Shown piece by piece: positions 2,095 to 51,808 of a stretch of DNA of 62,928 bases. A model generated the notes under the pieces. It had not been told where the DNA came from and did no database searches. It saw nothing but the letters and a program-made list of their open reading frames with translations. The position numbers and the translations under genes are program-made. The stretch's first letter is position 1, and each line of letters begins with the position of its first letter. Source of the DNA: Patescibacteria group bacterium (GTDB lineage Bacteria > Chloroflexota > Limnocylindria > Limnocylindrales > CSP1-4); contig DATJGH010000137.1 of the NCBI GenBank assembly GCA_035495215.1, positions 1 to 62,928 of the forward strand, given 5' to 3'.

Positions 2095-3651
2095 TCAGGA
2101 AAACGAAAGCTTCGTCTCGCCGAGCGAGAGCTCTGCGCGCACCGCGTCGGCCTCGGGGGTCAGCCCAAGCTCCTCGAAGCCGGCGAGCGCCTGCCGAAGG
2201 TGCGGCTCCGCCTCGCTCGCCTTCCCGGCGGCGCGAAGCGATTCACCCCACGCCCGTCGAGTCCGGGCGAGCATGGGCCGCAACCCGATCTCCTGCATCA
2301 ACGCGATCGCCGCTTCGGCATCCGGCCTCGCGGCATCGACGTCGCCGTGCGTGACTGCCGCTTCCGCGCGCTTGGCCAGGATTCCCGCCTCGCCCATGCG
2401 GTTCCCGATGGACCGCGCGGTGGCAAGCGCCTCGTCCCACTCGCCGTCCTCCGCCGCGCCGAGGGCCGCCTGGGTCGAGCTCAGCCAGGCCACCAGCGTC
2501 GGGCGCCATACCTTCCGATCGACCACCGCCGAGATATCCGTGCCGCGCTTCAGGATGTCGCGAGCCTCCGCGTAGCGACCCTGGCGATAGAACACGTCCC
2601 CGAGGATCCATGAGCTCGCGATGATGCAGGCAGTTGCTCCGGTCTCCGCAGATTGCTGCACGCATTTGCTGGCGATCGGAACGGCTCCCTCGAGATCGCC
2701 CTTCGCTGATCGGACCAGGGATTCCGCGATGAGCGCGTCGAGCTGCGCGATCAGGTCGCTCTTGCCGGCGAGCTCCGTAGCCCGGGCGGCCGCGGCCTCC
2801 GCCTTCTCGAACTCCCCCACGTAGGCGTAGCCGATGGCGAGCGCGCCCCGGGCAAAGGCCGGCCCCACGGTGTCCCGGCGGCCCTCCAATACGGGGAGTG
2901 CCTCCTCGAGCTCGGCGATACCTCTGTGGGGATTGCCACTGAAGACATGGCTGAGACCCACGAGCGCCGTGGGAATGACCCGCAACGATGGATCGCCGAT
3001 CGCCTCGCCGACCTGTGCGATCCGGTCGAGCGAACGCTTGACGACCGGTTGGCTCGCGGATTCCCCGTTCTGCAGTCGGCCGAGCGCGATCAGGGTGTGC
3101 AAGCGCCCGATGAGCTCCTGGTCGCCCAGCTCCTCGGCAGGCTCGACGATGTCCTCGAGGGCTGCGAACGTCTCTTCAGGCGAGCGGAAGTAACCGCCGG
3201 CATCGGCCCTGCCGAGCTCGATCTCGATCTGTCGCCGTCGCCGCCGGTCGATCTCTGACCCTGACAGCGCGGCTGGGCCGGACGACTGATCCTCTTCGTG
3301 AATGAGGGTTGCCGCGCGATCGAAGGCCTCGTACGCCTCCTGGATGGCGTTCTGGCCGAGCGCGTGCTTGGCGCCCTCGGCGTAATAGTCGATGGCCCGC
3401 TCGGTGTCGCCGGCCTGCTCGAAGTGCATCGCCAGGACCGGCGCGAGCTCTCCGACGCGTTCCGGATAGAGCTCCTCCAGGGCGGTGCCGACGCGGCCGT
3501 GCAGCTCCCGTCGCTCCTGCTTCAGGAGCGACGTGTAGGCGGCGTCCTGAACGAGGCCATGGCGGAACAGGTACTCCAGCTCCGGTCGGATCGCGGCGAG
3601 GCGGATGAGGCCCTTCGCCTCGAGGACGTCGACCCTGGTATCGATGGTCAT
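2095..3651 (-). CDS. winged-helix/TPR C-terminal module of a cyclase-ATPase-TPR signalling protein (encoded separately)
   Basis: 518 aa. N-terminus (YLFRHGLVQDAAYTSLLKQERRELHGRVG) matches the post-ATPase segment of large STAND-like regulators, followed by TPR-like helical repeats. Its ATG overlaps the upstream stop (ATGA at 3648-3651). Confidence 0.8.
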   Translation of the reverse strand: MTIDTRVDVLEAKGLIRLAAIRPELEYLFRHGLVQDAAYTSLLKQERRELHGRVGTALEELYPERVGELAPVLAMHFEQAGDTERAIDYYAEGAKHALGQNAIQEAYEAFDRAATLIHEEDQSSGPAALSGSEIDRRRRRQIEIELGRADAGGYFRSPEETFAALEDIVEPAEELGDQELIGRLHTLIALGRLQNGESASQPVVKRSLDRIAQVGEAIGDPSLRVIPTALVGLSHVFSGNPHRGIAELEEALPVLEGRRDTVGPAFARGALAIGYAYVGEFEKAEAAAARATELAGKSDLIAQLDALIAESLVRSAKGDLEGAVPIASKCVQQSAETGATACIIASSWILGDVFYRQGRYAEARDILKRGTDISAVVDRKVWRPTLVAWLSSTQAALGAAEDGEWDEALATARSIGNRMGEAGILAKRAEAAVTHGDVDAARPDAEAAIALMQEIGLRPMLARTRRAWGESLRAAGKASEAEPHLRQALAGFEELGLTPEADAVRAELSLGETKLSFS

Positions 3652-7023: not shown

Positions 7024-7728
7024 ATGGTGGCGGGGAGTCATCGAAACGAACGTCGTGCGAGCCCTTGTCGAAAGGGAACAGACGTTCTAAACTTCAGCGT
7101 GCCCGCAAAGCGCAACCAGCGACCCACGAACGTTCGCTTCTACGCGGCGAACCGGGCGAGCGAGATCGAGCGGGTGCGACGTCGGCAGGACCTCACGACT
7201 GCGTTCCTGCGGGAGCTTCGTAACGTCCCCTGTGCCGACTGTGGCGGTCGGTTTGCCGGCCATCAGATGGACTTCGACCATCGGGATCCGAACGAGAAGG
7301 CGTTTGACCTCACGAAGGGCCGGGCTGCGCTCAAGAATCGGGAGCAGCTCCTTGCCGAGGCAGCCAAGTGCGATGTCGTCTGTGCGAATTGCCATCGCCT
7401 CCGGACGCGGAGACAGCATCGCGAATGGCTGGCGGCGCGGACCCAGGCGACCACTCCTGGCCTGGCCGACCGACGGAGACACTGGCGCTACAACGCAGAT
7501 CTGCTGGATCAATTGCGGTCAGTGCCCTGCGCCGATTGCGGCGGTCAGTTCGCACAGTGCGCAATGGACTTCGATCACCGAGACCCGTCGACCAAGGTTC
7601 GAGGCGTTACCCGGATGATCAATGGCAGTACGGATCGCATGCTGGCCGAGGCAGCCAAGTGCGATATCGTCTGCGCGAGCTGCCACCGCCTTCGGACGTT
7701 CGAGCGGCGTTCGCGGCAGTCCGCCTGA
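7024..7728 (+). CDS. tandem-HNH (double CxxC..DH..CxxCH) nuclease-like protein
   Basis: Two ~60-aa modules (7225-7407 and 7522-7698), each VPCADCGG..MDFDHRDP..AEAAKCD(V/I)VCA(N/S)CHRLRT. The start is uncertain; GTG at 7099 is an alternative because the divergent kinase starts at 7006. The TGA stop at 7726-7728 directly abuts the tRNA. Confidence 0.75.
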   Translation: MVAGSHRNERRASPCRKGTDVLNFSVPAKRNQRPTNVRFYAANRASEIERVRRRQDLTTAFLRELRNVPCADCGGRFAGHQMDFDHRDPNEKAFDLTKGRAALKNREQLLAEAAKCDVVCANCHRLRTRRQHREWLAARTQATTPGLADRRRHWRYNADLLDQLRSVPCADCGGQFAQCAMDFDHRDPSTKVRGVTRMINGSTDRMLAEAAKCDIVCASCHRLRTFERRSRQSA

Positions 7729-7804
7729 GCGGGCGAAGCAAAGCTGGTTTTGCACCTGGCTTCCAACCAGGCGGTCGCGGGTTCGAATCCCGTCGCCCGC
7801 TCCA
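7729..7804 (+). tRNA. tRNA-Gly (anticodon UCC), CCA encoded
   Basis: Hand-folded cloverleaf. Acceptor GCGGGCG/CGCCCGC, D stem GCAA/TTGC, anticodon stem CCTGG/CCAGG with loop CTTCCAA, 5-nt variable loop, T arm GCGGG-TTCGAAT-CCCGT, discriminator U, CCA. Position 8 is A rather than the usual U. Confidence 0.88.
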
Positions 7805-7833: not shown

Positions 7834-8136
7834 GTGGGCGTGAGCCTGTACCTCAAGAACTACCTCAGCGTGGCGACGACACTGCCTGCGCTCACCTTCC
7901 TGGTCGGCGGAAATCTCGGTATCGTCGCGTGGGCGCGCGGCGGCACGGTGCTGCAGCGGGCATTCGCGAATGCTGCAGCCATCGCGGAGGAGATGAAGGC
8001 GGCCGGGGGCCCGCCGAGCTCCGAGCTCATGGCCCGCCAGCTGGCAGCCACAGCCCGGCTTCGGACCATCGGGCAGCAGGACCTCGTCCTGGTGCTCGCG
8101 GCCGCCGTGCTCATGTCGGTGGCGCGCTACCTCTGA
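7834..8136 (+). CDS. small membrane protein (two predicted TM segments)
   Basis: The track ORF 7750-8136 would overlap the tRNA, so it was trimmed to GTG 7834. Hydrophobic segments at both ends. Its stop overlaps the next start (TGATG at 8134-8138). Confidence 0.5.
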   Translation: MGVSLYLKNYLSVATTLPALTFLVGGNLGIVAWARGGTVLQRAFANAAAIAEEMKAAGGPPSSELMARQLAATARLRTIGQQDLVLVLAAAVLMSVARYL

Positions 8137-10430
8137 TGCGCGAGCCGGCTCCTACCATCTCGCCGATGGAGGGCCGGCAGCTCCGCGATCGTGAGGCGAT
8201 CGCGCTCGACGTCATCGGCGTCGCAGGGCTTGCCGCATTTGCCATCGGCCTGATCTGGCTGCAGGGCTCGAAGAACCTCGGCTTCGACCTCGGGGCCGCG
8301 ATCGAAGGCGTCCTCGGGCAGGTCGGCGTCACGGTCCCGGCGGCGCTCCTCGTCCTCGGCGCGAGCGCCCTCGAGCTGGCGGCCGGGCTGGTCCTCGCTC
8401 GCGCCGCGCGTCGCACTCCGTTCGATTCGCTCGGCGAGGCGGCGATCGGGGCGATGGTCGCCGCGGTCCTGAAGGACACGCTGCTGCTCGGCACCCTTGC
8501 CGCGTTCGGGCTGTTCCTCGCTCCGATCCTCGCCGGCGTGGACGCGTTGATCGTGGCCGCGGCGATCCTGCCGCCGCTGCGCGGGCACCTCAGGCCGCTC
8601 GTCACGCTCGGCAGCTGGCGCGACCTCCTCGCCGCGATCGGCTCGTGGCCGCTCGCGGCCCTCGTTGCCGTCGTCTGGGTCGGCCCGGCGATCCTGCAGC
8701 TGGCGAGCCCGGTCGTGCCGTTCATCGACGTCCTGCCGAACTACGTCGGGCCGGTGGAGCACCTGCGCACCTTCGGCTGGTTCGCGCCCCTCACGGCGAC
8801 ACAGTCGCCGATCATCGGGCCGTCGCGGACCGTGCTCGGGTACGACGCGCTCCTCGGCGCCGTCGCGACCCTGACCGGCCTGTCCGGCGGCCTCGCGATC
8901 GCCGGGTTCATCCTGCCCCAGACCGTGCTCGTCGCGGCGGGTGTCCATCGCCTCGCGAGCGCGATTCGAAACGGTGATCCACCCGTCTCCGCGTGGGCCC
9001 TGCTGGCCTTCGCGCTCAGCCAATCCTTCGCGCGACTCGCGGACGCCCGAGGCACGGTCGTCGTCCTTCCGCTGGTGTGCCTCGGCCTGGCCGTTGCCGC
9101 CGAGCTGATCCGCGACAGGCCCGAAGGCGACCCGTGGCGGATCGGACGCGGCGCCGTCATCGGGCTCGCGCTCGGCGCGGCCACGCTCGTGCACCCGGTG
9201 ATCGGCTTCTTCGCGATCGTCACGGTCGGCATCGTCGGGCTGGCTCGCCCGCGTGCAGCCGCGCCGGCCGCCTTCGTCGGGGGTCTTGTCGCCGCGCTCG
9301 TGGCCCTGCCGCAGCTGGCGACCATGCTCGGGCTCAGCCTGCCCACGCTCGGCCTCGGCCTCGGGCTCCCGATCGCCGTCGCACTCGGCATCGCGGCGAG
9401 TCGTTTCGTCGATCGGCGCGAGGTCGTTCGGGCAGGCATCGTGCGCCTGGCGGACCTGGGCCGTCTCGTGCTGGTCGTCGCCGGGGGTGCCGTCCTGATC
9501 GGCGCGTTCGCGGTCGCGCTCCTGAACGCCGACAGGATCCCGGACGCGGCGGGCGAGGCAGTCAGCCTCGCGCTCGAATCGAGCGGGATCCTCCTGATCA
9601 CGCTCGGAATCGGCGCCGCGCTCGGCAGCCGTGGCGCTCGCTCGCCGATCGTCGTCGTCGGCCTGGTCGTGGGGGTGGTGGCGGTCGGGATCACGCAGGT
9701 CCTCCCGGACGACCTCGGCTTCCTCGGCACCGCCCTCCGGTTCGAGGTGCCCAAGACCGTGCACTACTGGCTGTCGTTCATCGCGGCTGCGGGCGCCGCA
9801 TCGGCGCTCGCCTTCGCGTGGGCGGGCGGGGGCCGGCCCGTGCTCACAATGGCCGCCCGGGCGGCGATGGTGGCCGCCTTCGTCGTGGTCGCAGCGCTCC
9901 CGCTCCGGTTCGGCAACAGCGGCGACGACTCGAGCTGCAAGGCCGACTGCTCGACGATCAACGCGTACCACCTGGGCGAGCACCGCTGGTCCGAGTCGTT
10001 CGCGATCGACCTGCACTTCGCGGCGATCGGCTTCTGGCAGGGCTTCCCCGACCCGCGCACGGTCGTCGACCGGCCTCGGCAGGAGATCCTCGACGCCGTC
10101 CGGGCGGAGATCGACGCCGGCCGGCTCGAGCACGACACGCCGGTCCTGCACGTCGCGAGCTCCTTCCAGCAGTGGGTCGCCACGCCGCTCGGCGTTTTCG
10201 ACGGCGTGGACGAGACCGATGTCAGCCTCGATCCGGAGGTCAGCCATCAGACCGTCGGCGGCCGGCTCTACGGGCTCGATGCCCTCGCCGGGTTCGTCAC
10301 GTCGGGCGAGTTCCCGTACGTGGTCCTGGAGCCGCGCGGCCTCCAGGACGGCGTGCGGCAGCAGATTGAAGGGGCTGGCTACGAATCCTTCTTCGCCAAC
10401 GAGCAGGGCGAGGTCTTCCGCGCGCCGTAG
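8136..10430 (+). CDS. large polytopic integral membrane protein (~15 TM) with a ~190-aa C-terminal soluble domain
   Basis: Real part of track ORF 7368-10430, whose upstream part runs through the HNH gene and tRNA. 764 aa of successive Ala/Leu/Gly/Val-rich helices, then a polar tail. Family not recognised. Confidence 0.75.
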   Translation: MREPAPTISPMEGRQLRDREAIALDVIGVAGLAAFAIGLIWLQGSKNLGFDLGAAIEGVLGQVGVTVPAALLVLGASALELAAGLVLARAARRTPFDSLGEAAIGAMVAAVLKDTLLLGTLAAFGLFLAPILAGVDALIVAAAILPPLRGHLRPLVTLGSWRDLLAAIGSWPLAALVAVVWVGPAILQLASPVVPFIDVLPNYVGPVEHLRTFGWFAPLTATQSPIIGPSRTVLGYDALLGAVATLTGLSGGLAIAGFILPQTVLVAAGVHRLASAIRNGDPPVSAWALLAFALSQSFARLADARGTVVVLPLVCLGLAVAAELIRDRPEGDPWRIGRGAVIGLALGAATLVHPVIGFFAIVTVGIVGLARPRAAAPAAFVGGLVAALVALPQLATMLGLSLPTLGLGLGLPIAVALGIAASRFVDRREVVRAGIVRLADLGRLVLVVAGGAVLIGAFAVALLNADRIPDAAGEAVSLALESSGILLITLGIGAALGSRGARSPIVVVGLVVGVVAVGITQVLPDDLGFLGTALRFEVPKTVHYWLSFIAAAGAASALAFAWAGGGRPVLTMAARAAMVAAFVVVAALPLRFGNSGDDSSCKADCSTINAYHLGEHRWSESFAIDLHFAAIGFWQGFPDPRTVVDRPRQEILDAVRAEIDAGRLEHDTPVLHVASSFQQWVATPLGVFDGVDETDVSLDPEVSHQTVGGRLYGLDALAGFVTSGEFPYVVLEPRGLQDGVRQQIEGAGYESFFANEQGEVFRAP

Positions 10431-14590: not shown

Positions 14591-14700
14591 AGCATTCGGA
14601 TCGGAGCAACGGACCCGCGTCGCCTGAACGCTTGACGCTCCCATCGTGCGCGGAATACTGCATCGACGGCCGGGCAGGACCAGGGAAAGAGGGGACCCAC

Positions 14701-16086
14701 ATGATCATCGATCCGGGCATGCCCAAGTCACGGCGTGCGTTGCTTCTTGGCGCGCTTGGCGGGATCGCGGCAACGGTGGCCGGCTTGATGAAGGCGCCGA
14801 CCACGCTCGCGGGCACCGATGGTGACCTCGCTCTGGAGACCACCAACAACACGGATGTGTTGACCGAGCTGGTCGGGTCGTCTGCGCCCGCGCTCCGAGT
14901 CGTTGGTGGCGGCGTCGGCCTGCAGGCCTGGGGTGACATCGCCCTCGATGCCTTCGGGGACATCGCCGTCAACGCGATCTCGGACGCCACCTCTGCGCCG
15001 GCGAGCATCGGGTTCAACCGGGGCAGCTCGGTCGGGGTCCTCGGCTGGAGCGCCGATGGCAACGAGTCGACGCCAACCCTGCCGCCCAAGACGGGTGTCT
15101 TCGGGCTCGCCGAGCAGGATGCGGATGCGCGAGGCGTTCTCGGGAAGAGCGGGTCTGGCCAGGGCGTCCGCGGCGAAGCCCTGACGGGGATCGGCGTCGC
15201 CGGCGTCATCGGCCCCAATCCAGCACCCAGCACGCCGGCGGCGAGCTGGCCCGGCGTCGAGGGCTACGGCCCGATCGGCGTGATCGGATTCAGCGATCTG
15301 CTCACCGGCGTCATCGGTGTGAGTGACCCGACGGTTCCGTTGACGGTGTCGCCCAAGACCGGTGTCTACGGCATCGCAGCGCAGGACGCGTCCTCGCGAG
15401 GCGTGCTCGGCGAGACGGATTCCGGTGTGGGTGTCCTCGGCCGGGCGTCCACGGGGCAGGGTCTTCGCGGTGAAAGCGATTCCGGGCCCGGCGTCTTCGC
15501 AACCAACAATGCAGCAAGTGTGGGATCGATCGTCGCTGAGGGTGGGCCAGGCACAGCCGTCCACGGGCACGGCGGTGGCGGGAACGTGCCCGTGTCGCCG
15601 CCAACGACCGGGATCTACGGCAGCGCCGCTGGTGTCGCGACGGGTGTGTTCGGTGACGCGACGAGCGGCGTGGGCGTCCGCGGCTGGGCCACGACAGGAG
15701 ACGGTATGTCGGCGAAGGCGACAACCGGCGTCGGGATTCGGTCGGTTGCCACCAGTGGGGAAGGCGTGCACGGAGAGGCGACGGCGGGAGTCGGCGTGAA
15801 GGCGCTCGCCACGACCGGGGTCGCGCTCGCCGTCTCGGGCAGGGCGACCTTCAGCCGCTCTGGCCTCGCGATGGTGTCGCCGAAACAGAGCGTCGTCGAC
15901 GTGATCGTGCCTGGTGGACTCACCGGCAGCCCCATCGTCTTCGCCCAGCTGCAGCTCAAGCGCGGCAACGTCCATGTGCTCGCGTGTCGCCCCAACTCCC
16001 CGTCGGCGGGCAAGATACGGGTGACCCTGAGCGGCGTCGCCTCGACCACGGCCGCGACGCCCCTGGCCTGGCTCGTGCTCGGGTAA
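14701..16086 (+). CDS. Tat-signal secreted protein built of Gly-rich ~10-residue repeats
   Basis: Twin-arginine signal SRRALLLGALGGIAATVAG. Body is dominated by (A/S)T(S/T)GxG(V/I)xGx decapeptides, cleanest at ATSGVGVRGW ATTGDGMSAK ATTGVGIRSV ATSGEGVHGE ATAGVGVKAL. Non-repetitive ~85-aa C-terminus. Confidence 0.7.
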   Translation: MIIDPGMPKSRRALLLGALGGIAATVAGLMKAPTTLAGTDGDLALETTNNTDVLTELVGSSAPALRVVGGGVGLQAWGDIALDAFGDIAVNAISDATSAPASIGFNRGSSVGVLGWSADGNESTPTLPPKTGVFGLAEQDADARGVLGKSGSGQGVRGEALTGIGVAGVIGPNPAPSTPAASWPGVEGYGPIGVIGFSDLLTGVIGVSDPTVPLTVSPKTGVYGIAAQDASSRGVLGETDSGVGVLGRASTGQGLRGESDSGPGVFATNNAASVGSIVAEGGPGTAVHGHGGGGNVPVSPPTTGIYGSAAGVATGVFGDATSGVGVRGWATTGDGMSAKATTGVGIRSVATSGEGVHGEATAGVGVKALATTGVALAVSGRATFSRSGLAMVSPKQSVVDVIVPGGLTGSPIVFAQLQLKRGNVHVLACRPNSPSAGKIRVTLSGVASTTAATPLAWLVLG

Positions 16087-35454: not shown

Positions 35455-35934
35455 ATGACCAGCGCCCCGATCGACTTCGCCGCTCCGGGGAGCGTGCTCG
35501 ACCATCTTTCCGGCTACGCCCGGGATCGACTCTCGCGCATCTCGCGGACCGAAACGTTCGAAGCAGGCGCCACGATCCTCGCGGAAGGCGGTCCGACGCT
35601 CTTCCTGGGCGTGGTCGAGTCGGGCCGGATCGCGCTCCGACTTCGGGTCCCCGAGCAGGGTGATCGCCTCACGATCCTGACCATCGAGCCGGGTGAGCTC
35701 TTCGGCTGGTCAGCGGTCGTGCCGCCGTACCGGGCCACGATCGACGCGATCGCGACCGAGCCGGCGACGGTCCTCGCGATCGATGCCCTGGAGCTGCGGA
35801 CGACGCTCGCGCGCGACTGCGACCTCGCGGCGGAGGTGCTGCCGCTCGTGCTCGAGTCGCTCGCAGCGCGCCTTGCCGGCAGCTGGCACCAGCTGCTCGA
35901 CCTGTTCGCGACCGGGACGCCGCAACCGTGGTGA
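35455..35934 (+). CDS. stand-alone cyclic-nucleotide-binding domain protein (no DNA-binding domain)
   Basis: 159 aa. GGAGG RBS 10 nt upstream. cNMP beta-barrel pattern FEAGATILAEGGP..LFLGVVESGRIAL..ELFGWSAVV. Its stop overlaps the next ATG (TGATG). Confidence 0.72.
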   Translation: MTSAPIDFAAPGSVLDHLSGYARDRLSRISRTETFEAGATILAEGGPTLFLGVVESGRIALRLRVPEQGDRLTILTIEPGELFGWSAVVPPYRATIDAIATEPATVLAIDALELRTTLARDCDLAAEVLPLVLESLAARLAGSWHQLLDLFATGTPQPW

Positions 35935-38003
35935 TGCCGGGCGACCCCCTGGCTCCGGGTCCGTCGCCGGGCGCCCCGCCGGCCGGCTGGGGCGAGGCGA
36001 CCCGATTCCTGCCGCGAGACCGCCTGGGCGACCTGATCGCGGCGCTGCGCGCGGCCGGACGGCGCGTCGTCGCCCCCGTGGTCGAGGACGGCGCATTGAA
36101 GATGGCCGAGATCGAGAGCCCGAACGAGCTGCCATTCGGCTGGACCGCGAAGTCCGAACCCGGCGTGGCCCGGCTGGTTCGGCAGCCCGCGGGGTCGCCG
36201 GGCGCCGATCGCGCCTTCGACAACGGTCCCGCATGGCGCGGCATCAAGCCCTGGACGTTCCCGGCCCGGGTGGAGTCGCTGGCCGTCGAGACCACCGCGG
36301 ACGGGCGCCTCGCCGTCCGAGTCGAGGCGCCGGCGCTGCAGCCAACCGCGGTGTTCGGCGCCCGTGCCTGCGACCTCGCCGCGCTCGCGGTCCATGACCG
36401 CGTCCTCGCGGACGGTCCCGCGGTGGATCCGGACTACGCAGCGCGCCGCGGCGACCTGTTCGTGGTCGCAGTCGAGTGTGCCCTGGCCACGTCGACCTGC
36501 TTCTGCACGTCGATGGGCACCGGGCCCGAGGTGACGACCGGCGCGGACATCGTGCTGAGCGAGGTCGACGGCGGATTCGTGGCTCGCTCCGAATCGGCCG
36601 CGGGCGCTCGGCTCCTCGACGGGCTCGCGCTCGACATCGCCATGCCCGCGCGCGTCGCGCAGGCCGCCGACCAGGTGGCGGCGACGCGGACCGCCATGGG
36701 CAACCCGGTGCAGGCGGCGGGCCTGCACGACCGGCTCCTGGCCAACCTCGACCATCCGCGCTGGGACGCGATCGCCGAGCGCTGCCTCGCCTGCGCGAAC
36801 TGCACCCTGGTCTGCCCGACCTGTTTCTGCACCGGGCTGGAGATCGGCTCGGACCTCGAAGGCCGCGAGTCGACCGCGACCCGGACCTGGGACAGCTGCT
36901 TCACCGCCGGCTTCGCCCAGGTCGCGGGCGGCGGCTCGTTCCGGCCCCGGCAACGGGATCGCTACCGGCAGTGGCTCACCCACAAGTTCGGGACGTGGTG
37001 GGACCAGTTCGGGACCTCGGGCTGCGTGGGCTGCGGCCGGTGCATCGCCTGGTGCCCGGTCGGGATCGACGTGCGCGAGGAGCTCGCGATCATCGCCGCC
37101 CCCGCCCTGGCGGACGCCGCGCCCGCCGCGCCTGCCGCGACGCGCCGGCACCCGGTGCTCCAGACAACGGTCGAGCCGGGCTCGGTCCGGACGGACTACG
37201 TGACTGTGAAGGTCACCGAGGTCCGCCCCGAGACCGCCGATACGACGACGCTCGTCCTGGCCACGGACGATCCGTCCCTTCTCGCCGCACGCCCGGGGCA
37301 GTTCGTGATGGTCGCGATGCCGGCCTTTGCCATCCCCCCGATCTCGATCTCGCGGATCCGGCCGGACGGGCTCGAGCTGACGATTCGCGCGGCCGGTCCG
37401 GCGACGTCGCTGCTGGCCAGGCTCCAGCCGGGCGCGCAGCTCGGCCTCCGCGGCCCCCTCGGCCGGCCGTGGCCGATCGAGGATGCAACGGGACGCGACG
37501 TCGTGATCGTCGGCGGCGGGATCGGCCTCGCCCCGCTGCGCGGCGTGATCGACGCGGTGCTCGCCGACCGGGACCGCTACGGGGCCGTCCGCGTCTACGC
37601 CGGCGCGCGCACGCCGCGCGACCGCCTGTTCGTGGCCCAGCTCGATGCCCTGTCCGCCCGAGACGACGTGGTCGTCCGGTCCACCGTGGACCGGGCCGGC
37701 GCGGACTGGCTCGGCCGGGTCGGGATCGTGACCCAGCTGTTCCCGACGCCGCAACCGGGGATCAGCGGCGCGAACGTCACTGCCTTCGTGTGCGGGCCCG
37801 AGCGGATGATGACGGCGACCGCCGATGCGCTCGTGGACCTCGGTGTCCCGGCGGACCACCTGTGGTTGACGCTCGAACGGCGGATGGAGTGCGGCGTGGG
37901 GCTGTGCGGCCACTGCCAGCTCGGAACGCGGTTCGTCTGTCGCGACGGGCCGGTGTTCTCGGTCGCGGAGCTCGGGCCGGACCTCCGGCGGGAGGGGTTG
38001 TGA
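35934..38003 (+). CDS. group 3b [NiFe]-hydrogenase beta (Fe-S, AsrA/HydB-like) and gamma (FAD/NAD(P)-binding, 2Fe-2S, HydG/PyrK-like) subunits fused in one polypeptide
   Basis: 689 aa. Cys clusters CFCTSMGTG, CLACANCTLVCPTCFC, GCVGCGRCIAWCP. Ala/Pro linker. Then a ferredoxin-reductase-type fold (RPGQFVMV, ISISR, VIVGGGIGLAPL) and C-terminal CGVGLCGHCQ. Confidence 0.87.
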   Translation: MPGDPLAPGPSPGAPPAGWGEATRFLPRDRLGDLIAALRAAGRRVVAPVVEDGALKMAEIESPNELPFGWTAKSEPGVARLVRQPAGSPGADRAFDNGPAWRGIKPWTFPARVESLAVETTADGRLAVRVEAPALQPTAVFGARACDLAALAVHDRVLADGPAVDPDYAARRGDLFVVAVECALATSTCFCTSMGTGPEVTTGADIVLSEVDGGFVARSESAAGARLLDGLALDIAMPARVAQAADQVAATRTAMGNPVQAAGLHDRLLANLDHPRWDAIAERCLACANCTLVCPTCFCTGLEIGSDLEGRESTATRTWDSCFTAGFAQVAGGGSFRPRQRDRYRQWLTHKFGTWWDQFGTSGCVGCGRCIAWCPVGIDVREELAIIAAPALADAAPAAPAATRRHPVLQTTVEPGSVRTDYVTVKVTEVRPETADTTTLVLATDDPSLLAARPGQFVMVAMPAFAIPPISISRIRPDGLELTIRAAGPATSLLARLQPGAQLGLRGPLGRPWPIEDATGRDVVIVGGGIGLAPLRGVIDAVLADRDRYGAVRVYAGARTPRDRLFVAQLDALSARDDVVVRSTVDRAGADWLGRVGIVTQLFPTPQPGISGANVTAFVCGPERMMTATADALVDLGVPADHLWLTLERRMECGVGLCGHCQLGTRFVCRDGPVFSVAELGPDLRREGL

Positions 38004-38941
38004 TGGCGCTTGCCATGCCGGAGCCCGGTCGAGTCCGGCGCGTCGCCGAGGCGCAGCGACCGCGGGTCGGTGTCGTCAAGTTCGCGTCGTGCGACGGCTG
38101 CCAGCTGACCATCCTCGATCTCGAGGACGAGCTGCTCGCCCTCACCGACCGCTTCGATTTCGTCGAGTTCGCCGAGGCAACGTCGAAGCGCTCGTCCGGC
38201 CCATTCGACGTCTTGTTCGTCGAGGGCTCCATCTCCACCCCGGAGCAGGCGGTCGAGATCGTTCGCCTGCGGGCGGTCACGAGGACGCTGGTCACGATCG
38301 GGGCGTGCGCCACCGTCGGCGGGATCCAGGCCCTGCGAACCGCCTCGGAACACGAGGCCTTCCGGTCGGCGGTGTACCCGTCGCCCGCGTTCGTCGACTC
38401 GCTCGTGGTCGCCTCGCCGATCGCCAGCCACGTCACCGTCGACCATGAGCTCCGCGGCTGCCCGATCGACGGACACCAGCTCGTCGAGCTGCTGACCTCC
38501 GTCGCCACGGGCCGGCGCCCCCAGCTGCCGGACCAGGCGGTGTGCCTCGAGTGCAAGCGGCGCGGGTACGAGTGCGTCGTCGTGACCCGCGGCGAGCCGT
38601 GCCTGGGGCCGGTCACGCAAACCGGTTGCGGCGCGATCTGCCCGGGCATGGGGCGCGGCTGCTACGGCTGCTTCGGGCCCCGGGAGGGTGCCAACGTCGA
38701 GTCGCTCGCCGGCTGGTACATGAACGGGCCGTCCGGGCCGCGGGCCGCGGTCGACGTGGGCCGCCTGTTCGCCGGCTTCACCGGCGCGAGCCCGGCCTTC
38801 CGCGCCATCACGGATCGGCTCGGCGGACGCCCGCCCCTGCCACTGCGGCCGGCGCTGGCCCACCCGCCCGAGCTCGTCCAGGAGGCGCTCCCCACGTGGG
38901 GGCCGCAACCGGCGGAGGAGGCTGTCGATGCACACGAGTGA
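38003..38941 (+). CDS. hyhS: [NiFe]-hydrogenase small (delta) subunit, group 3b type
   Basis: Last 312 codons of track ORF 36476-38941. FASCDGCQL, GACATVGGI, CLECKRRGYEC, GPVTQTGCGAICPGMGRGCYGCFGP. ATG overlaps the upstream TGA. Confidence 0.9.
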   Translation: MALAMPEPGRVRRVAEAQRPRVGVVKFASCDGCQLTILDLEDELLALTDRFDFVEFAEATSKRSSGPFDVLFVEGSISTPEQAVEIVRLRAVTRTLVTIGACATVGGIQALRTASEHEAFRSAVYPSPAFVDSLVVASPIASHVTVDHELRGCPIDGHQLVELLTSVATGRRPQLPDQAVCLECKRRGYECVVVTRGEPCLGPVTQTGCGAICPGMGRGCYGCFGPREGANVESLAGWYMNGPSGPRAAVDVGRLFAGFTGASPAFRAITDRLGGRPPLPLRPALAHPPELVQEALPTWGPQPAEEAVDAHE

Positions 38942-40232
38942 CCTCCGCTTCCAGGTCCAGAACCTGACCCGTGTCGAGGGCGAGGGGTCGCTGCACCTGA
39001 CGGTCCGGGACGGGCAGGTCAGCGAGGCGCGACTGCAGATCTTCGAGGCGCCGCGGTACTTCGAGGCGCTCGTGGTTGGCCGGACCCCGAACGAAGTCCT
39101 CGACATCGTGTCGCGCATCTGCGGCATCTGCCCCGTCGCCTACCAGATGAGCGCGGTCCACGCCTTCGAGGACCTGTTCGGCGTCGAGGTCGAGCCGGCG
39201 ACGCGGGCCCTCCGCCGGCTCCTGTACTGCGCCGAATGGATCGAGAGCCACGCCCTGCATATCTACCTCCTGCACGCCCCCGACTTCCTCGGCTACCCGA
39301 GCGCGGTGGAGCTCGCCCGGGACCATCGCCAGCTGGTCACGGATGGGCTGCGGCTCAAGCAGATCGGCAACCAGCTGCTGGCGCTCCTCGGTGGCCGCGC
39401 GATCCACCCGGTCAGCGTCCGCGTCGGCGGCTGGTCGCGAGCTCCGCGGCGAGCCCAGCTCACGGCGTTCGTCCCCGCCCTGCACGAGGCGCTCCAGCTC
39501 GCCCGTGCCACGGTCGACGTGGCGCTCACGCTCACGCCGCCCGAGTTCGAGCGCGAGCCGCGGCTCGTCGCGCTCCACCATCCGGGCGAATACCCGATGA
39601 ACGAGGGCCGGATCGTCTCTGATCGCGGGCTCAACCTCCCAGCGCAGTCCTGGCCCGAGGTCTTCCACGAGGTCCAGGTGCCCTGGTCGAATGCGCTCCA
39701 GGCCCGGGACGACAGCGGCCTGCCGTATCTCCTCGGGCCCGCCGCGCGGATCGTGCTCGATCACGACCAGCTTCATCCGCTGGCCAGGGAGGCGCTCGAG
39801 AGCAGCGGGGCGCTGGAGTCGATCCGGCGCAACCCATATCGAAGCATCGTTGCCAGGGGCATCGAGCTGGTGCAGGCCGCCGCGGACGCGCTCGACATCG
39901 TCGAGGCCTACCGGCCTCCGGAGGCACCGGCCGTCACCTGGGAGCCGCGGCCGGGCGTCGCGGCCTGGGCCACCGAGGCGCCGCGGGGACTCCTGTTCCA
40001 TCGCTACGAGGTCGGCGAGGACGGGCTCGTCGCGGCCGCGACGATCGTCCCCCCGACGTCGCAGAACCAGGCAGCGATCGAGGCCGACATCGCGCTGTTC
40101 GCGCCCCGCGTCCTGGGCCTGCCGATGGACGAAGCGACGCGCCGGCTCGAGCAGCTGATCCGGGCCTACGACCCGTGCATCTCCTGCGCGACGCACTTCC
40201 TGGACCTGTCGATCGATGGGGTGCCGGCATGA
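38928..40232 (+). CDS. hyhL: [NiFe]-hydrogenase large (alpha) subunit, group 3b type
   Basis: 434 aa. N-terminal RICGICPVAY (RxCGxC) and C-terminal DPCISCATH Ni-Fe ligand motifs. GGAGGAG RBS. Confidence 0.95.
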   Translation: MHTSDLRFQVQNLTRVEGEGSLHLTVRDGQVSEARLQIFEAPRYFEALVVGRTPNEVLDIVSRICGICPVAYQMSAVHAFEDLFGVEVEPATRALRRLLYCAEWIESHALHIYLLHAPDFLGYPSAVELARDHRQLVTDGLRLKQIGNQLLALLGGRAIHPVSVRVGGWSRAPRRAQLTAFVPALHEALQLARATVDVALTLTPPEFEREPRLVALHHPGEYPMNEGRIVSDRGLNLPAQSWPEVFHEVQVPWSNALQARDDSGLPYLLGPAARIVLDHDQLHPLAREALESSGALESIRRNPYRSIVARGIELVQAAADALDIVEAYRPPEAPAVTWEPRPGVAAWATEAPRGLLFHRYEVGEDGLVAAATIVPPTSQNQAAIEADIALFAPRVLGLPMDEATRRLEQLIRAYDPCISCATHFLDLSIDGVPA

Positions 40233-40803: not shown

Positions 40804-42210
40804 ATGAGCGCATCGAGGCCACCGCTGCAGCCACGCTACCCGGGCATCCCGGCGATCGTCGACGGCTCCGAGGCCGTCGCCCACGTCGAGACCCGGCTCG
40901 CCGAGGTCGCCTGCGTCTACCCGATCACGCCGTCGACGACGATGGCCGCGATCTACCAGGCGGCCGTGGCGGACGGCCGGACCGACCTGTGGGGCACCCA
41001 CCTGCGCTTCATCGAGCCGGAGTCGGAGCACTCCTCGGCCTCCGCGGCGGAGGGCGCCGCGCTGGCGGGCGCGCGGGTCACCAACTTCACCGCTGGCCAG
41101 GGCCTGGTGCTGATGAAGGAGGTCCTGTACGTCATCAGCGGCAAGCGGCTGCCGGCCGTCTTCCACGTCGGCGCGCGGGCGCTGACGAGCCAGGCGCTCA
41201 ACATCCACGCCGGCCACGACGACGTGATGGCCGTGGCCGACTGCGGCTGGGGCATCCTGTTCGCCCGGAACGCCCAGGAGGCGGCGGACCTCGCGGCGAT
41301 CGCGCGCCGGGTCGCCGAGCTGACCGAGACGCCGTTCATGGTCGCGCAGGACGGCTTCCTGACGACCCACACGCTCGAGAACGTCCGGCTGCCCGAGGAC
41401 GAGCTGCTGCGCGAGTTCGTCGGCGACCCGCGCCAGCACGTGCGTGACCTGTTCGACCCGGCCGAGGCGCTGATGACCGGCGTCGTCCAGAACCAGGACA
41501 GCTACATGAAGGGCCGGATCGGCCAGCGGGCGTACACCGACAGGACCCACGGCGCGCTCGAGGGCGCGATGGCCGAGTGGACCGAGCTGACCGGCCGAGA
41601 GGTCCGGCCGGTGAGCACGTACCGGACCGAGGGCGCCCGCGAGATCCTGATCGCGATGGGCACGATCGCCGACACCGCGATCGCGGTCGTCGACCATCTC
41701 CGCGAGGCTGGCCGGCCGGTCGGGTGCATCGCGCTGACGGCGTTCCGGCCGTTCCCGGCCCTCGCCCTGGCCGAGGCCATCGGCGACGCCCGCGCGGTCG
41801 CGGTCGTCGAGCGGACGGATGAGCCGCTCGCCGCGGCCAACCCGCTTACGCGCGAGATTCGGGCAGCCCTGTACGACGCCGCCGCCGAGGGCGAGATGGT
41901 TCCCCGGGTGCGGTCCTACGTCGCCGGCCTCGGCTCGCGGGACGTCTCGGCGGGCGACCTGGTCGCCGTCTTCGACGATATCGCGGACCGCGCAGAGGTG
42001 AGCGATCGAGTCCGGGTCCTGGGCATCCGCCATCCCCTGGCGCTGCCCTCGACGTCGATCGACCTCCGGCCCCCAGGCGCCTACTCCATGCGCGGTCACT
42101 CGATCGGCGGGTTCGGCTCCGTCACGACCAACAAGCTCGTCGCCACGCTCGTCGGCGAGCTCTTCGACAAGCAGGTCCAGGCCTACCCGCGCTACGGATC
42201 GGAGAAGTAG
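40804..42210 (+). CDS. pyruvate/2-oxoacid:ferredoxin oxidoreductase, domains I-II plus the first ~40 residues of domain III (gamma), ending at an in-frame TAG
   Basis: AIVDGSEAVAHVE..VYPITPST..EHSSASAAEGAALAGAR..QGLVLMKE (alpha/domain I), then ..GHSIGGFGSVTTNKLVATLVG..AYPRYGSEK followed by TAG at 42208-42210. Confidence 0.85.
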   Translation: MSASRPPLQPRYPGIPAIVDGSEAVAHVETRLAEVACVYPITPSTTMAAIYQAAVADGRTDLWGTHLRFIEPESEHSSASAAEGAALAGARVTNFTAGQGLVLMKEVLYVISGKRLPAVFHVGARALTSQALNIHAGHDDVMAVADCGWGILFARNAQEAADLAAIARRVAELTETPFMVAQDGFLTTHTLENVRLPEDELLREFVGDPRQHVRDLFDPAEALMTGVVQNQDSYMKGRIGQRAYTDRTHGALEGAMAEWTELTGREVRPVSTYRTEGAREILIAMGTIADTAIAVVDHLREAGRPVGCIALTAFRPFPALALAEAIGDARAVAVVERTDEPLAAANPLTREIRAALYDAAAEGEMVPRVRSYVAGLGSRDVSAGDLVAVFDDIADRAEVSDRVRVLGIRHPLALPSTSIDLRPPGAYSMRGHSIGGFGSVTTNKLVATLVGELFDKQVQAYPRYGSEK

Positions 42211-42774
42211 GGCCTGCCGACGACCTACTACCTGACCATTGCGGACGCCCCGATTCGCGTGCACGCGGAGCTCGATCAGGTCGACTTCGTGCCGCTCCAC
42301 GACGTCTCGGCGTTCGATCTCGGAAACCCGCTCGCGGGTCTCGTCGACGGCGGCGACCTGTTCATCCAGTCGCCGCTCGCCGCGCCGGAGGCCATCTGGG
42401 CCTCGATCCCGGCGGACGCGCGCGCGGAGATCCTGGCGCGGAGCATCCGGGTGACCGCGCTCGACACCGCCGCCCTCGCCGTCCGCCACTCGCCGCGGCC
42501 GGATCTCGTGATCCGGATGCAGGGCGTGGCGCTGGTCGGGGTCTTCCTGCGCGTCGCGCCGTTCGCGGCGGCCGCGGGCATGGGTCGGCACCAGCTCCTG
42601 GAGGCGGTTGGCGAGCGGCTCGGGCGCTTCTTCGGCAAGCGCGGCACGAACGTCGTCCGCGCGAACCTCGCGGTCATCGGCGAGGCATGGGACGGGCTGA
42701 TCGATGTGACGGCTGCGATCGGCGGTCTCGAGACGGCAAAGCCGGTGCTGGAACGAGCGGGGGTGCTGCTGTGA
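42211..42774 (+). CDS. remainder of the PFOR gamma domain, same frame as the preceding ORF immediately after the TAG
   Basis: Codons after the TAG read GLPTTYYLTIADAPIRVHAELDQVDFVPLHD.., continuing the conserved GxE(K/R)xGxP..R(I) gamma-subunit motif. The first in-frame start (GTG 42259) would omit conserved residues. Confidence 0.7.
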   Translation, partial: GLPTTYYLTIADAPIRVHAELDQVDFVPLHDVSAFDLGNPLAGLVDGGDLFIQSPLAAPEAIWASIPADARAEILARSIRVTALDTAALAVRHSPRPDLVIRMQGVALVGVFLRVAPFAAAAGMGRHQLLEAVGERLGRFFGKRGTNVVRANLAVIGEAWDGLIDVTAAIGGLETAKPVLERAGVLL

Positions 42775-43211
42775 ATGAGGCGCATGGGTCCGAAGGCTCG
42801 CCGATCGTGGCCGACCGGATGGCCCGAACCCCGATCCTGATCCAGGCTGACGCCACGCTCACCGAGGCGGCCGGAATGATGGACCGCAACCATGTCCACG
42901 GCCTGCCGGTCATCGATCCCGACGGCACGCTCGTCGGCGTGCTGTCCCAGACCGACCTCAACCGCGCCCGCGCGACGGAGTACCTGTGGGTCAACTGGCC
43001 CGGGCTGTCGGTGCGCCACCTCATGACCAGCCCGGCCGTGACCATCCATCGCTCGACCCCGCTGATCGTCGCGGCGCGGAAGATGGAGCAGCTCGGGATC
43101 CACCGCCTCGTCGTGGTCGAGGACGGCGACGAGACGACGCCGATCGGAGTCCTGTCGATGAGCGACCTGATCCACGCCCTCGCCGAGGAGACGGACGGGG
43201 GTCGAGCCTGA
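42771..43211 (+). CDS. CBS-pair domain protein
   Basis: 146 aa. Two CBS motifs (HGLPVIDPDGTLVGVLSQTDL and HRLVVVEDGDETTPIGVLSMSDL). GTGA overlap upstream and TGATG overlap downstream. Confidence 0.8.
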   Translation: MNEAHGSEGSPIVADRMARTPILIQADATLTEAAGMMDRNHVHGLPVIDPDGTLVGVLSQTDLNRARATEYLWVNWPGLSVRHLMTSPAVTIHRSTPLIVAARKMEQLGIHRLVVVEDGDETTPIGVLSMSDLIHALAEETDGGRA

Positions 43212-44977
43212 TGTCCGAGCTGCTGGCCAAGGGCATCGGCGAGGTCAAGGAGGCCCACGACAGCCGCCTGCTGGCGGCAGCGCCGCCGCTGCTCGACATG
43301 GATGCCTACGTCGAGGAGTTCGGCCGCAGCGTCGTACCCGCCTACCGGCGGGGCATCGCCGATCGCGAGCTGCCCGCGGACGTCGGGCTCGCCCGCAGCG
43401 TCATCCCACCCGGGACGGCGGCGACGCGCGACTTCAGCCATCTGGCGCCGCGAATCCCGGAGCTGCTCGCGGAGCGCTGCGTCGGCTGCATGGCCTGCGT
43501 GAACGCGTGTCCCGACTCGGCGATCCTGGCGACGGTCGTGCCGGCGCCGGAGCTGGAGGGCCGGATCGCGACCTTCGCGGCCTCGACCGACGATCCGGCG
43601 CGCGCCGTTGCCACGGCCCGCAGCCATTTCGCCGACACGCAGAAGTACGGCGAGGTCCCTGCCCGCCGCGGACTGGACCGCGGCTCGTTCGGCCTCTTTG
43701 TCGATCCCGGCCACTGCAAGGGCTGCGGCGAATGCGTCGAGGTCTGCTCCGCGCTGGGTCACGACGCCCTGTTCATGCTCGACAAGGTCGCCGAGGAGCT
43801 GCCCCTGGCGGCTCCGCTCGCGGCGGCCGATCCGGCTCCCGTGACCGCGCCGACGGCACCCGCCGAAGGCCCTCTCTTGGACGAGCACATCACGGTCCAC
43901 GCCGCCGCCGAGTCGACGCTCGATCGATTCCGCCGCGACATGGCGTTCTATCGGACGCTTCCGCCGACGCCGAGCGAGTACCGCAACGAGAAGGCCCTGG
44001 CGGACGTGATGCTCGGCGAGTTCGCCTTCGGCTACGTCGGTGGCGCGGGGTCGTGCGCCGGCTGCGGCGAGGCGACGGCGATCCGGATGCTGGTGGCCGC
44101 GACGCGACAGGTCCACGGCCCGGAATCGATGGGCATCGTCGCCGCGACGGGCTGCAACACGGTCTTCGGCAGCACCTATCCGTTCAATCCCTATCGCGTG
44201 CCCTGGACCAACTCGCTGTTCGAGAACGCGCCGGCCGTCGCGCTCGGCGTCCGGGCCCGCTGGGACGCGGCCGGCCATCCCGAGCGGCGCCTGTGGGTGC
44301 TGGGCGGCGACGGCGCGATGTACGACATCGGCTTCCAGTCGCTGTCGCGGATGGTCGCGTCCGGGGCGGATATCAAGGTCCTCGTCCTCGACACGCAGGT
44401 CTACTCGAACACCGGCGGGCAGGCGTCCACGGCGACGTTCGGCGGCCAGGTGACCAAGATGTCGGCGTTCGGCAAGGAGCTGCACGGCCGCCCGGAGCGA
44501 CGCAAGGAGCTCGGCCGGATCCTGATGGCGCACGGCGAGGTCTACGTCGCCCAGACGACGCCCGCCCACCTGAACCACTTCTACCGGGCCGTCATGGACG
44601 CCAACGAGTACCCCGGGCCGGCGGTGATCGTGTGCTACGCGGCGTGCATGCCCGAGCACGGTATCGCCGACGACGCGGCCACCGCGCAGGCGAAGCTCGC
44701 CGTCGAGTCGCGGGCGTTCCCCCTGTACACGTATGACCCGCGGCGCGGGCCCTCGATGGCCGAGCGGCTCTCGCTCCAGGGCAACCCCGCGCTTCGCGAC
44801 GACTGGTCGAAGCAGCCCGATGGGGCGCCCGTGGACTTCCTGGCGTTCGCCCGCTCGGAGGGCCGCTTCGCCGGCCACTTCGGCCCAGACGGCTCGCGCA
44901 CCCCGGAGATCCTCGCGACCCAGGACGACCGGCTCGCCAACTGGCGCGGCCTCCAGGAGCTCGCCGGGCTGTCCTGA
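43211..44977 (+). CDS. PFOR domains IV-V-VI (2x[4Fe-4S] ferredoxin domain plus TPP-binding beta domain)
   Basis: 588 aa. CVGCMACVNACP and CKGCGECVEVC cluster motifs. TPP region GAGSCAGCGEATAIR, GGDGAMYDIGFQSL, VLDTQVYSNTGGQ. Confidence 0.9.
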   Translation: MSELLAKGIGEVKEAHDSRLLAAAPPLLDMDAYVEEFGRSVVPAYRRGIADRELPADVGLARSVIPPGTAATRDFSHLAPRIPELLAERCVGCMACVNACPDSAILATVVPAPELEGRIATFAASTDDPARAVATARSHFADTQKYGEVPARRGLDRGSFGLFVDPGHCKGCGECVEVCSALGHDALFMLDKVAEELPLAAPLAAADPAPVTAPTAPAEGPLLDEHITVHAAAESTLDRFRRDMAFYRTLPPTPSEYRNEKALADVMLGEFAFGYVGGAGSCAGCGEATAIRMLVAATRQVHGPESMGIVAATGCNTVFGSTYPFNPYRVPWTNSLFENAPAVALGVRARWDAAGHPERRLWVLGGDGAMYDIGFQSLSRMVASGADIKVLVLDTQVYSNTGGQASTATFGGQVTKMSAFGKELHGRPERRKELGRILMAHGEVYVAQTTPAHLNHFYRAVMDANEYPGPAVIVCYAACMPEHGIADDAATAQAKLAVESRAFPLYTYDPRRGPSMAERLSLQGNPALRDDWSKQPDGAPVDFLAFARSEGRFAGHFGPDGSRTPEILATQDDRLANWRGLQELAGLS

Positions 44978-51100: not shown

Positions 51101-51808
51101 CTAGTGGATCCCGTACGGGAACTCGGGGCTGCGGGTGGCCGGCTCGACATCGCGATCGTCGAGCGTCCAGTTCACGTCGACGTTCGCGTTGACGATGCCC
51201 GGCACGAGCCTGATCGTCTCGGCAACGATCGCCGCGGTCGAGCGCCGCTCGACAGTGCCCCGCACCGTCGCTTCGCCGTTGCGCACCTCGACCGTGAACC
51301 CAGCCGGATCGAGCCACAGGATTCGGAGCAGGACGTCCTCCCGGATGGTCTGGACGAGCTCCTCGTCGGTTCGCAGGTAGGCGCGGACCAGGTCCGCGCG
51401 GCTGACGATCCCGACCAGTCGGTCCTTGTCGACGACCGGCAGCCGATTGATCCGCCGGCTGGTCATGATCGCGGCGGCGTCGCTGATCGCGCACGTCGGC
51501 GCGACGGTCACGGCGGGCGCGGTCATCGCCTGGCCGGCCGTGCCCGCGGCGAGCTTGTCTCGCTGGGTTCGCACCTCGGCGCTCTCGCCCAGCAGGGTCT
51601 CGAGGCGCCGGTGCCGGACGGCGCGCGCGCCCTGTTCCTTGATCAGGAAGTCGGCTTCGGAAACGACGCCGAGGACAGTCCCCTTCGCGTCCACCACCGG
51701 CACGCCGCTGATGCCCCTGTCGAGCAGCACGCGGGCGACGTCCTTGAGCGGCGTCTCGGGCCGGACGGTCTTCACTGCGTGGGTCATCACGTCTCGAACG
51801 GTCAGCAT
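51101..51808 (-). CDS. CBS-pair plus BON domain protein
   Basis: 235 aa from MLTVRDVMT. Two CBS motifs (SGVPVVDAKGTVLGVVSEADF; NRLPVVDKDRLVGIVSRADL). C-terminal BON-like VEVRNGEATVRGTVE..IPGIVNANV. Confidence 0.85.
   Translation of the reverse strand: MLTVRDVMTHAVKTVRPETPLKDVARVLLDRGISGVPVVDAKGTVLGVVSEADFLIKEQGARAVRHRRLETLLGESAEVRTQRDKLAAGTAGQAMTAPAVTVAPTCAISDAAAIMTSRRINRLPVVDKDRLVGIVSRADLVRAYLRTDEELVQTIREDVLLRILWLDPAGFTVEVRNGEATVRGTVERRSTAAIVAETIRLVPGIVNANVDVNWTLDDRDVEPATRSPEFPYGIH

Follow-up and report, generated by a model that had tools for sequence, protein, structure and literature searches.

Among known systems, the enzyme treated here is close to the pyruvate:ferredoxin oxidoreductases (PFORs) of Desulfovibrio africanus and Moorella thermoacetica (PDB 1b0p, 7plm and 6cin), which are single-chain proteins. 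Domain III of PFOR forms the binding site for coenzyme A (CoA) and carries the CoA-binding P-loop (PMC8091585). The stretch of DNA analysed in this work, hereafter the window, comprises 62,928 nucleotides (nt) of contig DATJGH010000137.1 (assembly GCA_035495215.1), named a Patescibacteria group bacterium and placed by GTDB in the order Limnocylindrales of the Chloroflexota. In the window PFOR is encoded by two genes, alpha-gamma and delta-beta, with a gene for a CBS-pair protein between them, and the alpha-gamma gene is interrupted at codon 469 by an in-frame amber (TAG).

The pyrrolysine (Pyl) codons of mtmB, mtbB and mttB are likewise in-frame UAGs inside a conserved enzyme domain, beyond which the frame continues. 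These genes encode methylamine methyltransferases, a family unrelated to PFOR; their UAG is conserved among orthologues and the genome has pylTSBCD, whereas the UAG of the window is found in one sequence and the window holds neither a pyl-like gene nor a tRNA-CUA. Young nonsense alleles include the amber alleles of rpoS in E. coli K-12 lineages, and these share with the present case one point mutation giving an in-frame amber in an otherwise intact conserved gene, the lack of further decay and the restriction to one lineage. They differ from it in that the allele of the window has been seen in one assembled sequence only, which comes from an uncultured bacterium. The amber described here is an ordinary nonsense allele or an error, and features of this kind are already known. 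On balance we favour a real variant of the sequenced population, namely a nonsense (null) allele of very recent origin in the otherwise intact alpha-gamma PFOR gene of an uncultured soil bacterium of Limnocylindria type (Chloroflexota).

Identity of the interrupted gene

The amber is codon 469 of 657 and the sole internal stop of its frame (..QAYPRYGSEK*GLPTTYYLTIADAPIRVH..). It lies inside the motif YGSEK-x-GLPTTYY, just past the P-loop-like GHSIGGFGSVT, and this agrees with the first-pass annotation, which had described an in-frame amber within the gamma-domain motif of PFOR and a frame end coupled to the next gene by GTGA; that overlap is also present (Table 1). The frame was said to stay open for 188 more codons. 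It does stay open, but the figure includes the terminal stop and the sense codons number 187, followed by TGA in the unchanged frame.

Pfam and PDB comparisons were made with the 656-residue product, the amber codon being masked. POR_N (PF01855), the domain I on the thiamine pyrophosphate (TPP) side, was matched by residues 33-249 (E 1.7e-60), PFOR_II by residues 280-385 and POR/gamma (PF01558) by residues 435-628 (E 2.2e-22). This last match spans the amber, which falls 34 residues past the start of the gamma domain as defined by Pfam. Domains I, II and III of the D. africanus and M. thermoacetica enzymes align over residues 19-628 (E ~1e-77) and the YPITP motif of domain I (in the translation VYPITPST) is shared, as is the P-loop-like GxGxxG of domain III, with GHSIGGFGSVT aligning to GLGADGTVG of D. 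africanus PFOR. The ferredoxin domain V and TPP domain VI of the single-chain enzymes are supplied here by the adjacent beta partner, which matches TPP_enzyme_C and Fer4 families and has the same synteny in the closest relative. In contrast, codon 469 is a stop in the window only; 7plm_A has Ser460 at the aligned position and the close clade has Lys. Domain content, motifs and synteny all assign the gene to the PFOR family of 2-oxoacid:ferredoxin oxidoreductases (OFORs), and it departs from the family in one respect alone, namely that the frame through domain III is interrupted by TAG at codon 469.

The G+C content of the window is about 71% throughout; at this composition long open frames are common and openness by itself is uninformative. 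The 187 codons downstream of the amber are up to 89% identical to orthologues, they have the coding signature of this genome (G+C at third codon positions, GC3, 0.91; at second positions, GC2, 0.48) and they complete the PF01558 match. These three findings establish the downstream frame as the continuation of the PFOR gene.

The ancestral codon and the state of the gene

The residue at the site was examined in the best 120 of thousands of related proteins (79-93% identical, 610-681 residues). All 120 are uninterrupted and have Lys at the aligned column, which answers the call of the first-pass annotation for an orthologue alignment. The codon itself was read at 161 related loci, consisting of 80 loci of GTDB species representatives and 80 of JGI metagenomes, both sets confirmed by tblastn, and of the JGI soil metagenome contig Ga0496087_0003567 (L001). 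Lys is encoded at 151 of them (AAG 126, AAA 25), Arg at nine and Gln at one, and none has a stop; the amber is therefore present in 0 of 281 relatives, proteins and loci taken together. Ser at the site was seen in distant single-chain PFORs only, such as that of D. africanus. Moreover, a degenerate 44-nt pattern for PRYGSEK-TAG-GLPTTYY had 0 matches in the metagenome_contigs and genome_contigs collections.

L001 is the closest relative for which the DNA was compared. Its protein is 93% identical and its synteny is the same, with hydrogenase genes, alpha-gamma, CBS, delta-beta, a LiaF-TM protein and phosphoketolase. At the site it reads GGATCGGAGAAGAAGGGCCT, with AAG in an identical local context, against GGATCGGAGAAGTAGGGCCT in the window. 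The best GTDB species representative is 87% identical, and the relatives, which put the window in the Limnocylindria/Limnocylindrales lineage of Chloroflexota, are all uncultured metagenome-assembled genomes (MAGs). Since the relatives carry a sense codon, mainly AAG, and no TAG match was found elsewhere, the event, as read from the sequences compared, is one A>T transversion at 42208 (AAG>TAG) that is private to the window sequence. A recent nonsense mutation, as first proposed, is thus among the supported options, although the example then given, TCG to TAG, does not hold because the ancestral codon is AAG (Lys).

Columns with at least 97% agreement among the 120 orthologues were taken as near-invariant. 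At these the window deviates in 0 of 278 cases upstream and 0 of 89 downstream of the amber, the orthologue averages being 1.3 and 0.7. Private residues number none upstream and three downstream, each at a variable site, and one third of the orthologues have at least three downstream. The ratio of synonymous to non-synonymous changes downstream of the amber on the window branch is 22:5 with locus L002 as outgroup and 17:2 with L003, and the corresponding values on the branch of the intact L001 are 20:6 and 23:7. The coupled genes are equally conserved, with 0 of 189 deviating columns in delta-beta and 0 of 27 in CBS. As the rest of the gene and the operon are undamaged, the change is either very recent or artefactual. 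An old, decaying pseudogene can be ruled out by the 0 of 89 changed columns downstream, by the synonymous and non-synonymous counts and by the intact operon partners.

An apparent excess of downstream change on the window branch (50:25 with locus L082 as outgroup) was found to be an artefact of a mosaic L001, and no excess is seen with L002 or L003. The 5' part of PFOR in L001 is 94-96% identical to the window at the nucleotide level. From about window position 42100-42200 to 42774 (L001 ~2600-3283) it is 96-100% identical to L082 and only 75-87% to the window. The switch point lies in the most conserved stretch, adjoining the amber site. The mosaicism reflects either recombination between lineages or a chimeric metagenome assembly.

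An intact gene with one lesion is also the pattern that an error would give. The organism may have AAG (Lys) at this site and an ordinary intact PFOR alpha-gamma gene, the T at 42208 being present in the assembly only as a sequencing or consensus error or as a base of a minority strain. We regard this as a serious possibility that falls short of an even chance. It would explain why the PFOR gene and its two coupled genes have no other deviation at conserved positions, why the codon is one base away from that of 126 of the 161 relatives and why the TAG variant was seen nowhere else in two collections. On the other hand, the rest of the 63-kb window has no other in-frame stop in a coding frame and no evident frameshift, and the assembly does not look error-prone. 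Position 42208 is the only in-frame stop with coding signal on both sides, and about 50 genes are full-length in Pfam with no sign of a frameshift; this accuracy mildly favours a real variant over an error-rich assembly. In addition, graph-based short-read assemblers seldom output a base that has no read support, and young single-lesion pseudogenes are common in bacterial genomes. It is because of the lack of any other nonsense or evident frameshift lesion in the 63 kb, this behaviour of assemblers and the commonness of young pseudogenes that we lean to a real variant.

Several observations weigh against a real null allele, beginning with the fit of a consensus or base-call error to the single lesion. 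A second assembly of this population, more than 93% identical, from which the allele might be confirmed was not found: identity reaches only 93% (L001) and 90% (L082) in the closest relatives, and an exact-protein look-up with the 468-residue fragment, a 171-residue fragment, the delta-beta subunit and the hydrogenase large subunit returned no record of the same population. Furthermore, the operon stands within a coherent, otherwise intact fermentation cluster with hydrogenase, phosphoketolase and acetate kinase, in which loss of PFOR only is not obviously expected.

Termination, decoding and restart at the amber

A GC3-based gene call gave about 54 genes in the window, of which 40 end in TGA, 13 in TAG (the PFOR amber included) and one in TAA. 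TAG is therefore the regular stop of 12 of the ~53 other genes. In seven of these 12 the Pfam match ends a few residues from the C-terminus, as for XFP_C (to residue 795 of 797), acetate kinase (392/392 at residue 354 of 361), AcetylCoA_hyd_C (154/154 at 388 of 394), hemerythrin (127/127 at 146 of 150) and HATPase_c (at 1098 of 1107). Beyond the TAG the frame loses its coding signature or soon meets another stop in 10 of the 12, and in the other two it continues into a following gene that shares the frame. Genome-wide reassignment of TAG, already judged unlikely in the first-pass annotation from at least eight other TAG-ended genes, is rejected on the 12 GC3-supported genes that TAG ends at natural C-termini and on the lack of coding signal past these stops except where a same-frame gene follows.

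The window was also scanned for internal stops, defined as stops flanked on both sides by 60 stop-free codons of coding composition. Only 42208 and 51103 (-) were returned. The TAG at 51103 (-) is a normal boundary, at which a CBS-pair gene gives way, with no change of frame, to a gene for a small membrane protein, and was discarded as a second in-frame amber. The TAG at 1561-1563 was discarded likewise since a separate gene follows it in the same frame.

The amber could instead be decoded. Pyrrolysine might be inserted, with pylTSBCD located in another part of the genome, or a suppressor tRNA or basal near-cognate read-through (with Gln, Tyr or Lys) might be at work; full-length enzyme would then be the product of some or all ribosomes, and the stop might serve to attenuate the PFOR level. 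This is compatible with the full preservation of the 187 downstream codons and with the residues found in relatives (Lys, Arg and Gln, and Ser in D. africanus), which suggest that the inserted residue would probably be accepted. However, the absence of the amber from the 281 relatives and from both pattern scans argues that the site is not a conserved recoding site, and TAG is an ordinary terminator in the window as set out above. Folding of the 126 nt that begin at the stop is no more stable than that of shuffled sequences (minimum free energy -43.9 kcal/mol, shuffle mean -42.1, z = -0.52), and a PYLIS-like or programmed read-through structure was rejected on this result. The sole tRNA of the window is Gly-TCC (ARAGORN), and no genes for aminoacyl-tRNA synthetases, a radical-SAM PylB-like protein, PylC/D-like proteins or methylamine methyltransferases were found among essentially all genes of the window with Pfam. 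The literature searched contains no account of pyrrolysine being used in this lineage, and it mentions pyrrolysine and Chloroflexota together only incidentally. UAG-G preceded by Lys is not among the contexts known to be leaky. Taken together these data make decoding of the amber very unlikely.

Low-level near-cognate read-through of UAG, with Gln, Tyr or Lys, occurs in all bacteria, and it could yield traces of the full-length enzyme here; any of the three would probably be tolerated because Lys, Arg and Gln are natural at the site in relatives and Ser in D. africanus. That a real amber is partly decoded, by a near-cognate tRNA or by an unrecognised suppressor or Pyl system of this uncultured Limnocylindria lineage, to give a low and possibly condition-dependent PFOR level, and so constitutes a new translational attenuator of an oxygen-sensitive enzyme, is held to be extremely unlikely. 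Whether the base is real or an error, this amber is no evidence for stop-codon recoding in Chloroflexota. Of the three options listed in the first-pass annotation, a recent nonsense mutation and a sequencing or assembly error fit the data, while read-through has no positive support, since the stop is not conserved, no structure follows it and the window encodes no suppressor tRNA.

OFORs are known in many subunit arrangements, and in four-subunit enzymes gamma is separate (PDB 9bt4). A new subunit boundary can therefore be imagined, at which an alpha(+N-gamma) chain of 468 residues would end and past which the C-terminal part of gamma would be initiated on its own (for example at GTG 42259), the two forming an active enzyme; both halves are indeed intact. 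Nevertheless, no orthologue among the 120 proteins and 161 loci has a boundary at this point, all being continuous with a sense codon, and the cut falls inside the domain fold, 34-45 residues in. The first canonical start, GTG 42259, is 17 codons downstream and would delete the conserved or invariant GLPTTYYLTIADAPIR strand. The first-pass annotation had identified this GTG as the first in-frame start and foreseen a loss of conserved residues, and its doubts about a natural subunit split were well founded. The 20 nt before the GTG contain no Shine-Dalgarno-like purine run and no in-frame ATG, GTG or TTG precedes it, so that no site for reinitiation was recognized. No promoter-like site was found in the PFOR operon, and of two terminator-like matches neither is near the amber. 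The chance of a functional split is hence close to negligible.

Operon, surroundings and expected consequences

Table 1. Features of the PFOR alpha-gamma gene and of the genes coupled to it (window coordinates)
Feature	Position	Strand	Basis
Gene for the fused alpha and gamma subunits of the two-gene PFOR (domains I, II, III), broken at codon 469; ATG 40804 to TGA 42772-42774	40804-42774	+	Pfam and PDB matches; start and length (656 aa) same as in intact L001 orthologue
In-frame amber TAG replacing Lys AAG; altered base 42208 (A>T)	42208-42210	+	Frame reading and codons of relatives
5' segment, 468 codons: alpha domains I and II, first ~34-45 gamma residues, YPITP motif, GHSIGGFGSVT	40804-42207	+	Pfam, PDB alignment
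3' segment, 187 sense codons and TGA: rest of gamma (domain III) fold, untranslated if TAG is obeyed	42211-42774	+	Pfam, conservation, GC3
First canonical in-frame start (GTG) after the amber	42259-42261	+	Read from the sequence; preceding 20 nt TTGCGGACGCCCCGATTCGC
CBS-pair protein gene, overlapping the PFOR stop (GTGA: GTG 42771 / TGA 42772)	42771-43211	+	Pfam CBS, E 1.9e-28; equal position in L001
Delta-beta subunit gene (2x[4Fe-4S] ferredoxin domain and TPP-binding domain), overlapping the CBS stop (ATGA)	43208-44977	+	Pfam Fer4 families, TPP_enzyme_C

The PFOR operon extends over 40804-44977 (1313-5435 in L001). The CBS-pair gene lies between the alpha-gamma gene and the gene with the ferredoxin and beta domains and is translationally overlapped with both. 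This layout is common to L001, and a match to the CBS open reading frame (ORF) was obtained at 91 of the 161 related loci, in several phyla. It is possible that the CBS protein serves as a nucleotide or energy sensor for PFOR. The delta-beta subunit has 589 residues in the window and 563 in L001. The ~25 extra residues of the window in the alignment appear to belong to a stretch rich in Ala and Pro (..LAAPLAAADPAPVTAPTAPAEGP..) that separates the two ferredoxin cluster motifs, their placement being approximate.

Positions 27878-55385 of the window form a coherent gene island of hypoxia/fermentation type. It contains two Usp genes, a GAF-HisKA_3 kinase with a LuxR-type response regulator (DosS/DosR-like by domain content) and hemerythrin. 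Group-3-like [NiFe] hydrogenase genes lie at 35928-40232 and are accompanied by a probable maturation protease. Besides the PFOR operon, the island also comprises phosphoketolase, acetate kinase, flavodoxin, malic enzyme, an acetyl-CoA hydrolase/transferase, a cNMP-binding protein and a CBS-pair protein.

Three further ORFs of the window had no Pfam match. The ORF at 7024-7728 encodes two copies of a Cys-rich HNH-like module (VPCADCGG..F..MDFDHRDP...AKCD.VCA.CHRLRT) and its end directly abuts tRNA-Gly(TCC) at 7729-7804. The others encode a 764-residue multi-pass membrane protein (8136-10430) and a 484-residue Gly/Val-rich repetitive protein (14632-16086).

If the favoured reading of a real null allele is correct, the A>T change at 42208 would turn the Lys-469 codon AAG into amber and ribosomes would halt after residue 468. 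The truncated product would consist of domains I and II (the TPP side) and the first strand and P-loop of domain III, and about 187 residues of this CoA-binding domain would be missing. As the amber stands 561 nt before the overlapping CBS start, the alpha-gamma gene would no longer be translationally coupled to the CBS and delta-beta genes, and polarity on these two genes may occur and is even likely. With coupling lost and polarity possible, the whole PFOR would therefore be expected to be lost or strongly reduced.

The significance of the amber beyond annotation is little. Should the base be an error, the appropriate annotation would be a single intact protein of 656 residues. If it is real, PFOR, the link from pyruvate oxidation to ferredoxin and presumably on to the neighbouring [NiFe] hydrogenase, has only just been lost from this population or exists in it as a null allele, and a functional PFOR should not be assumed when the metabolism of this MAG is reconstructed.

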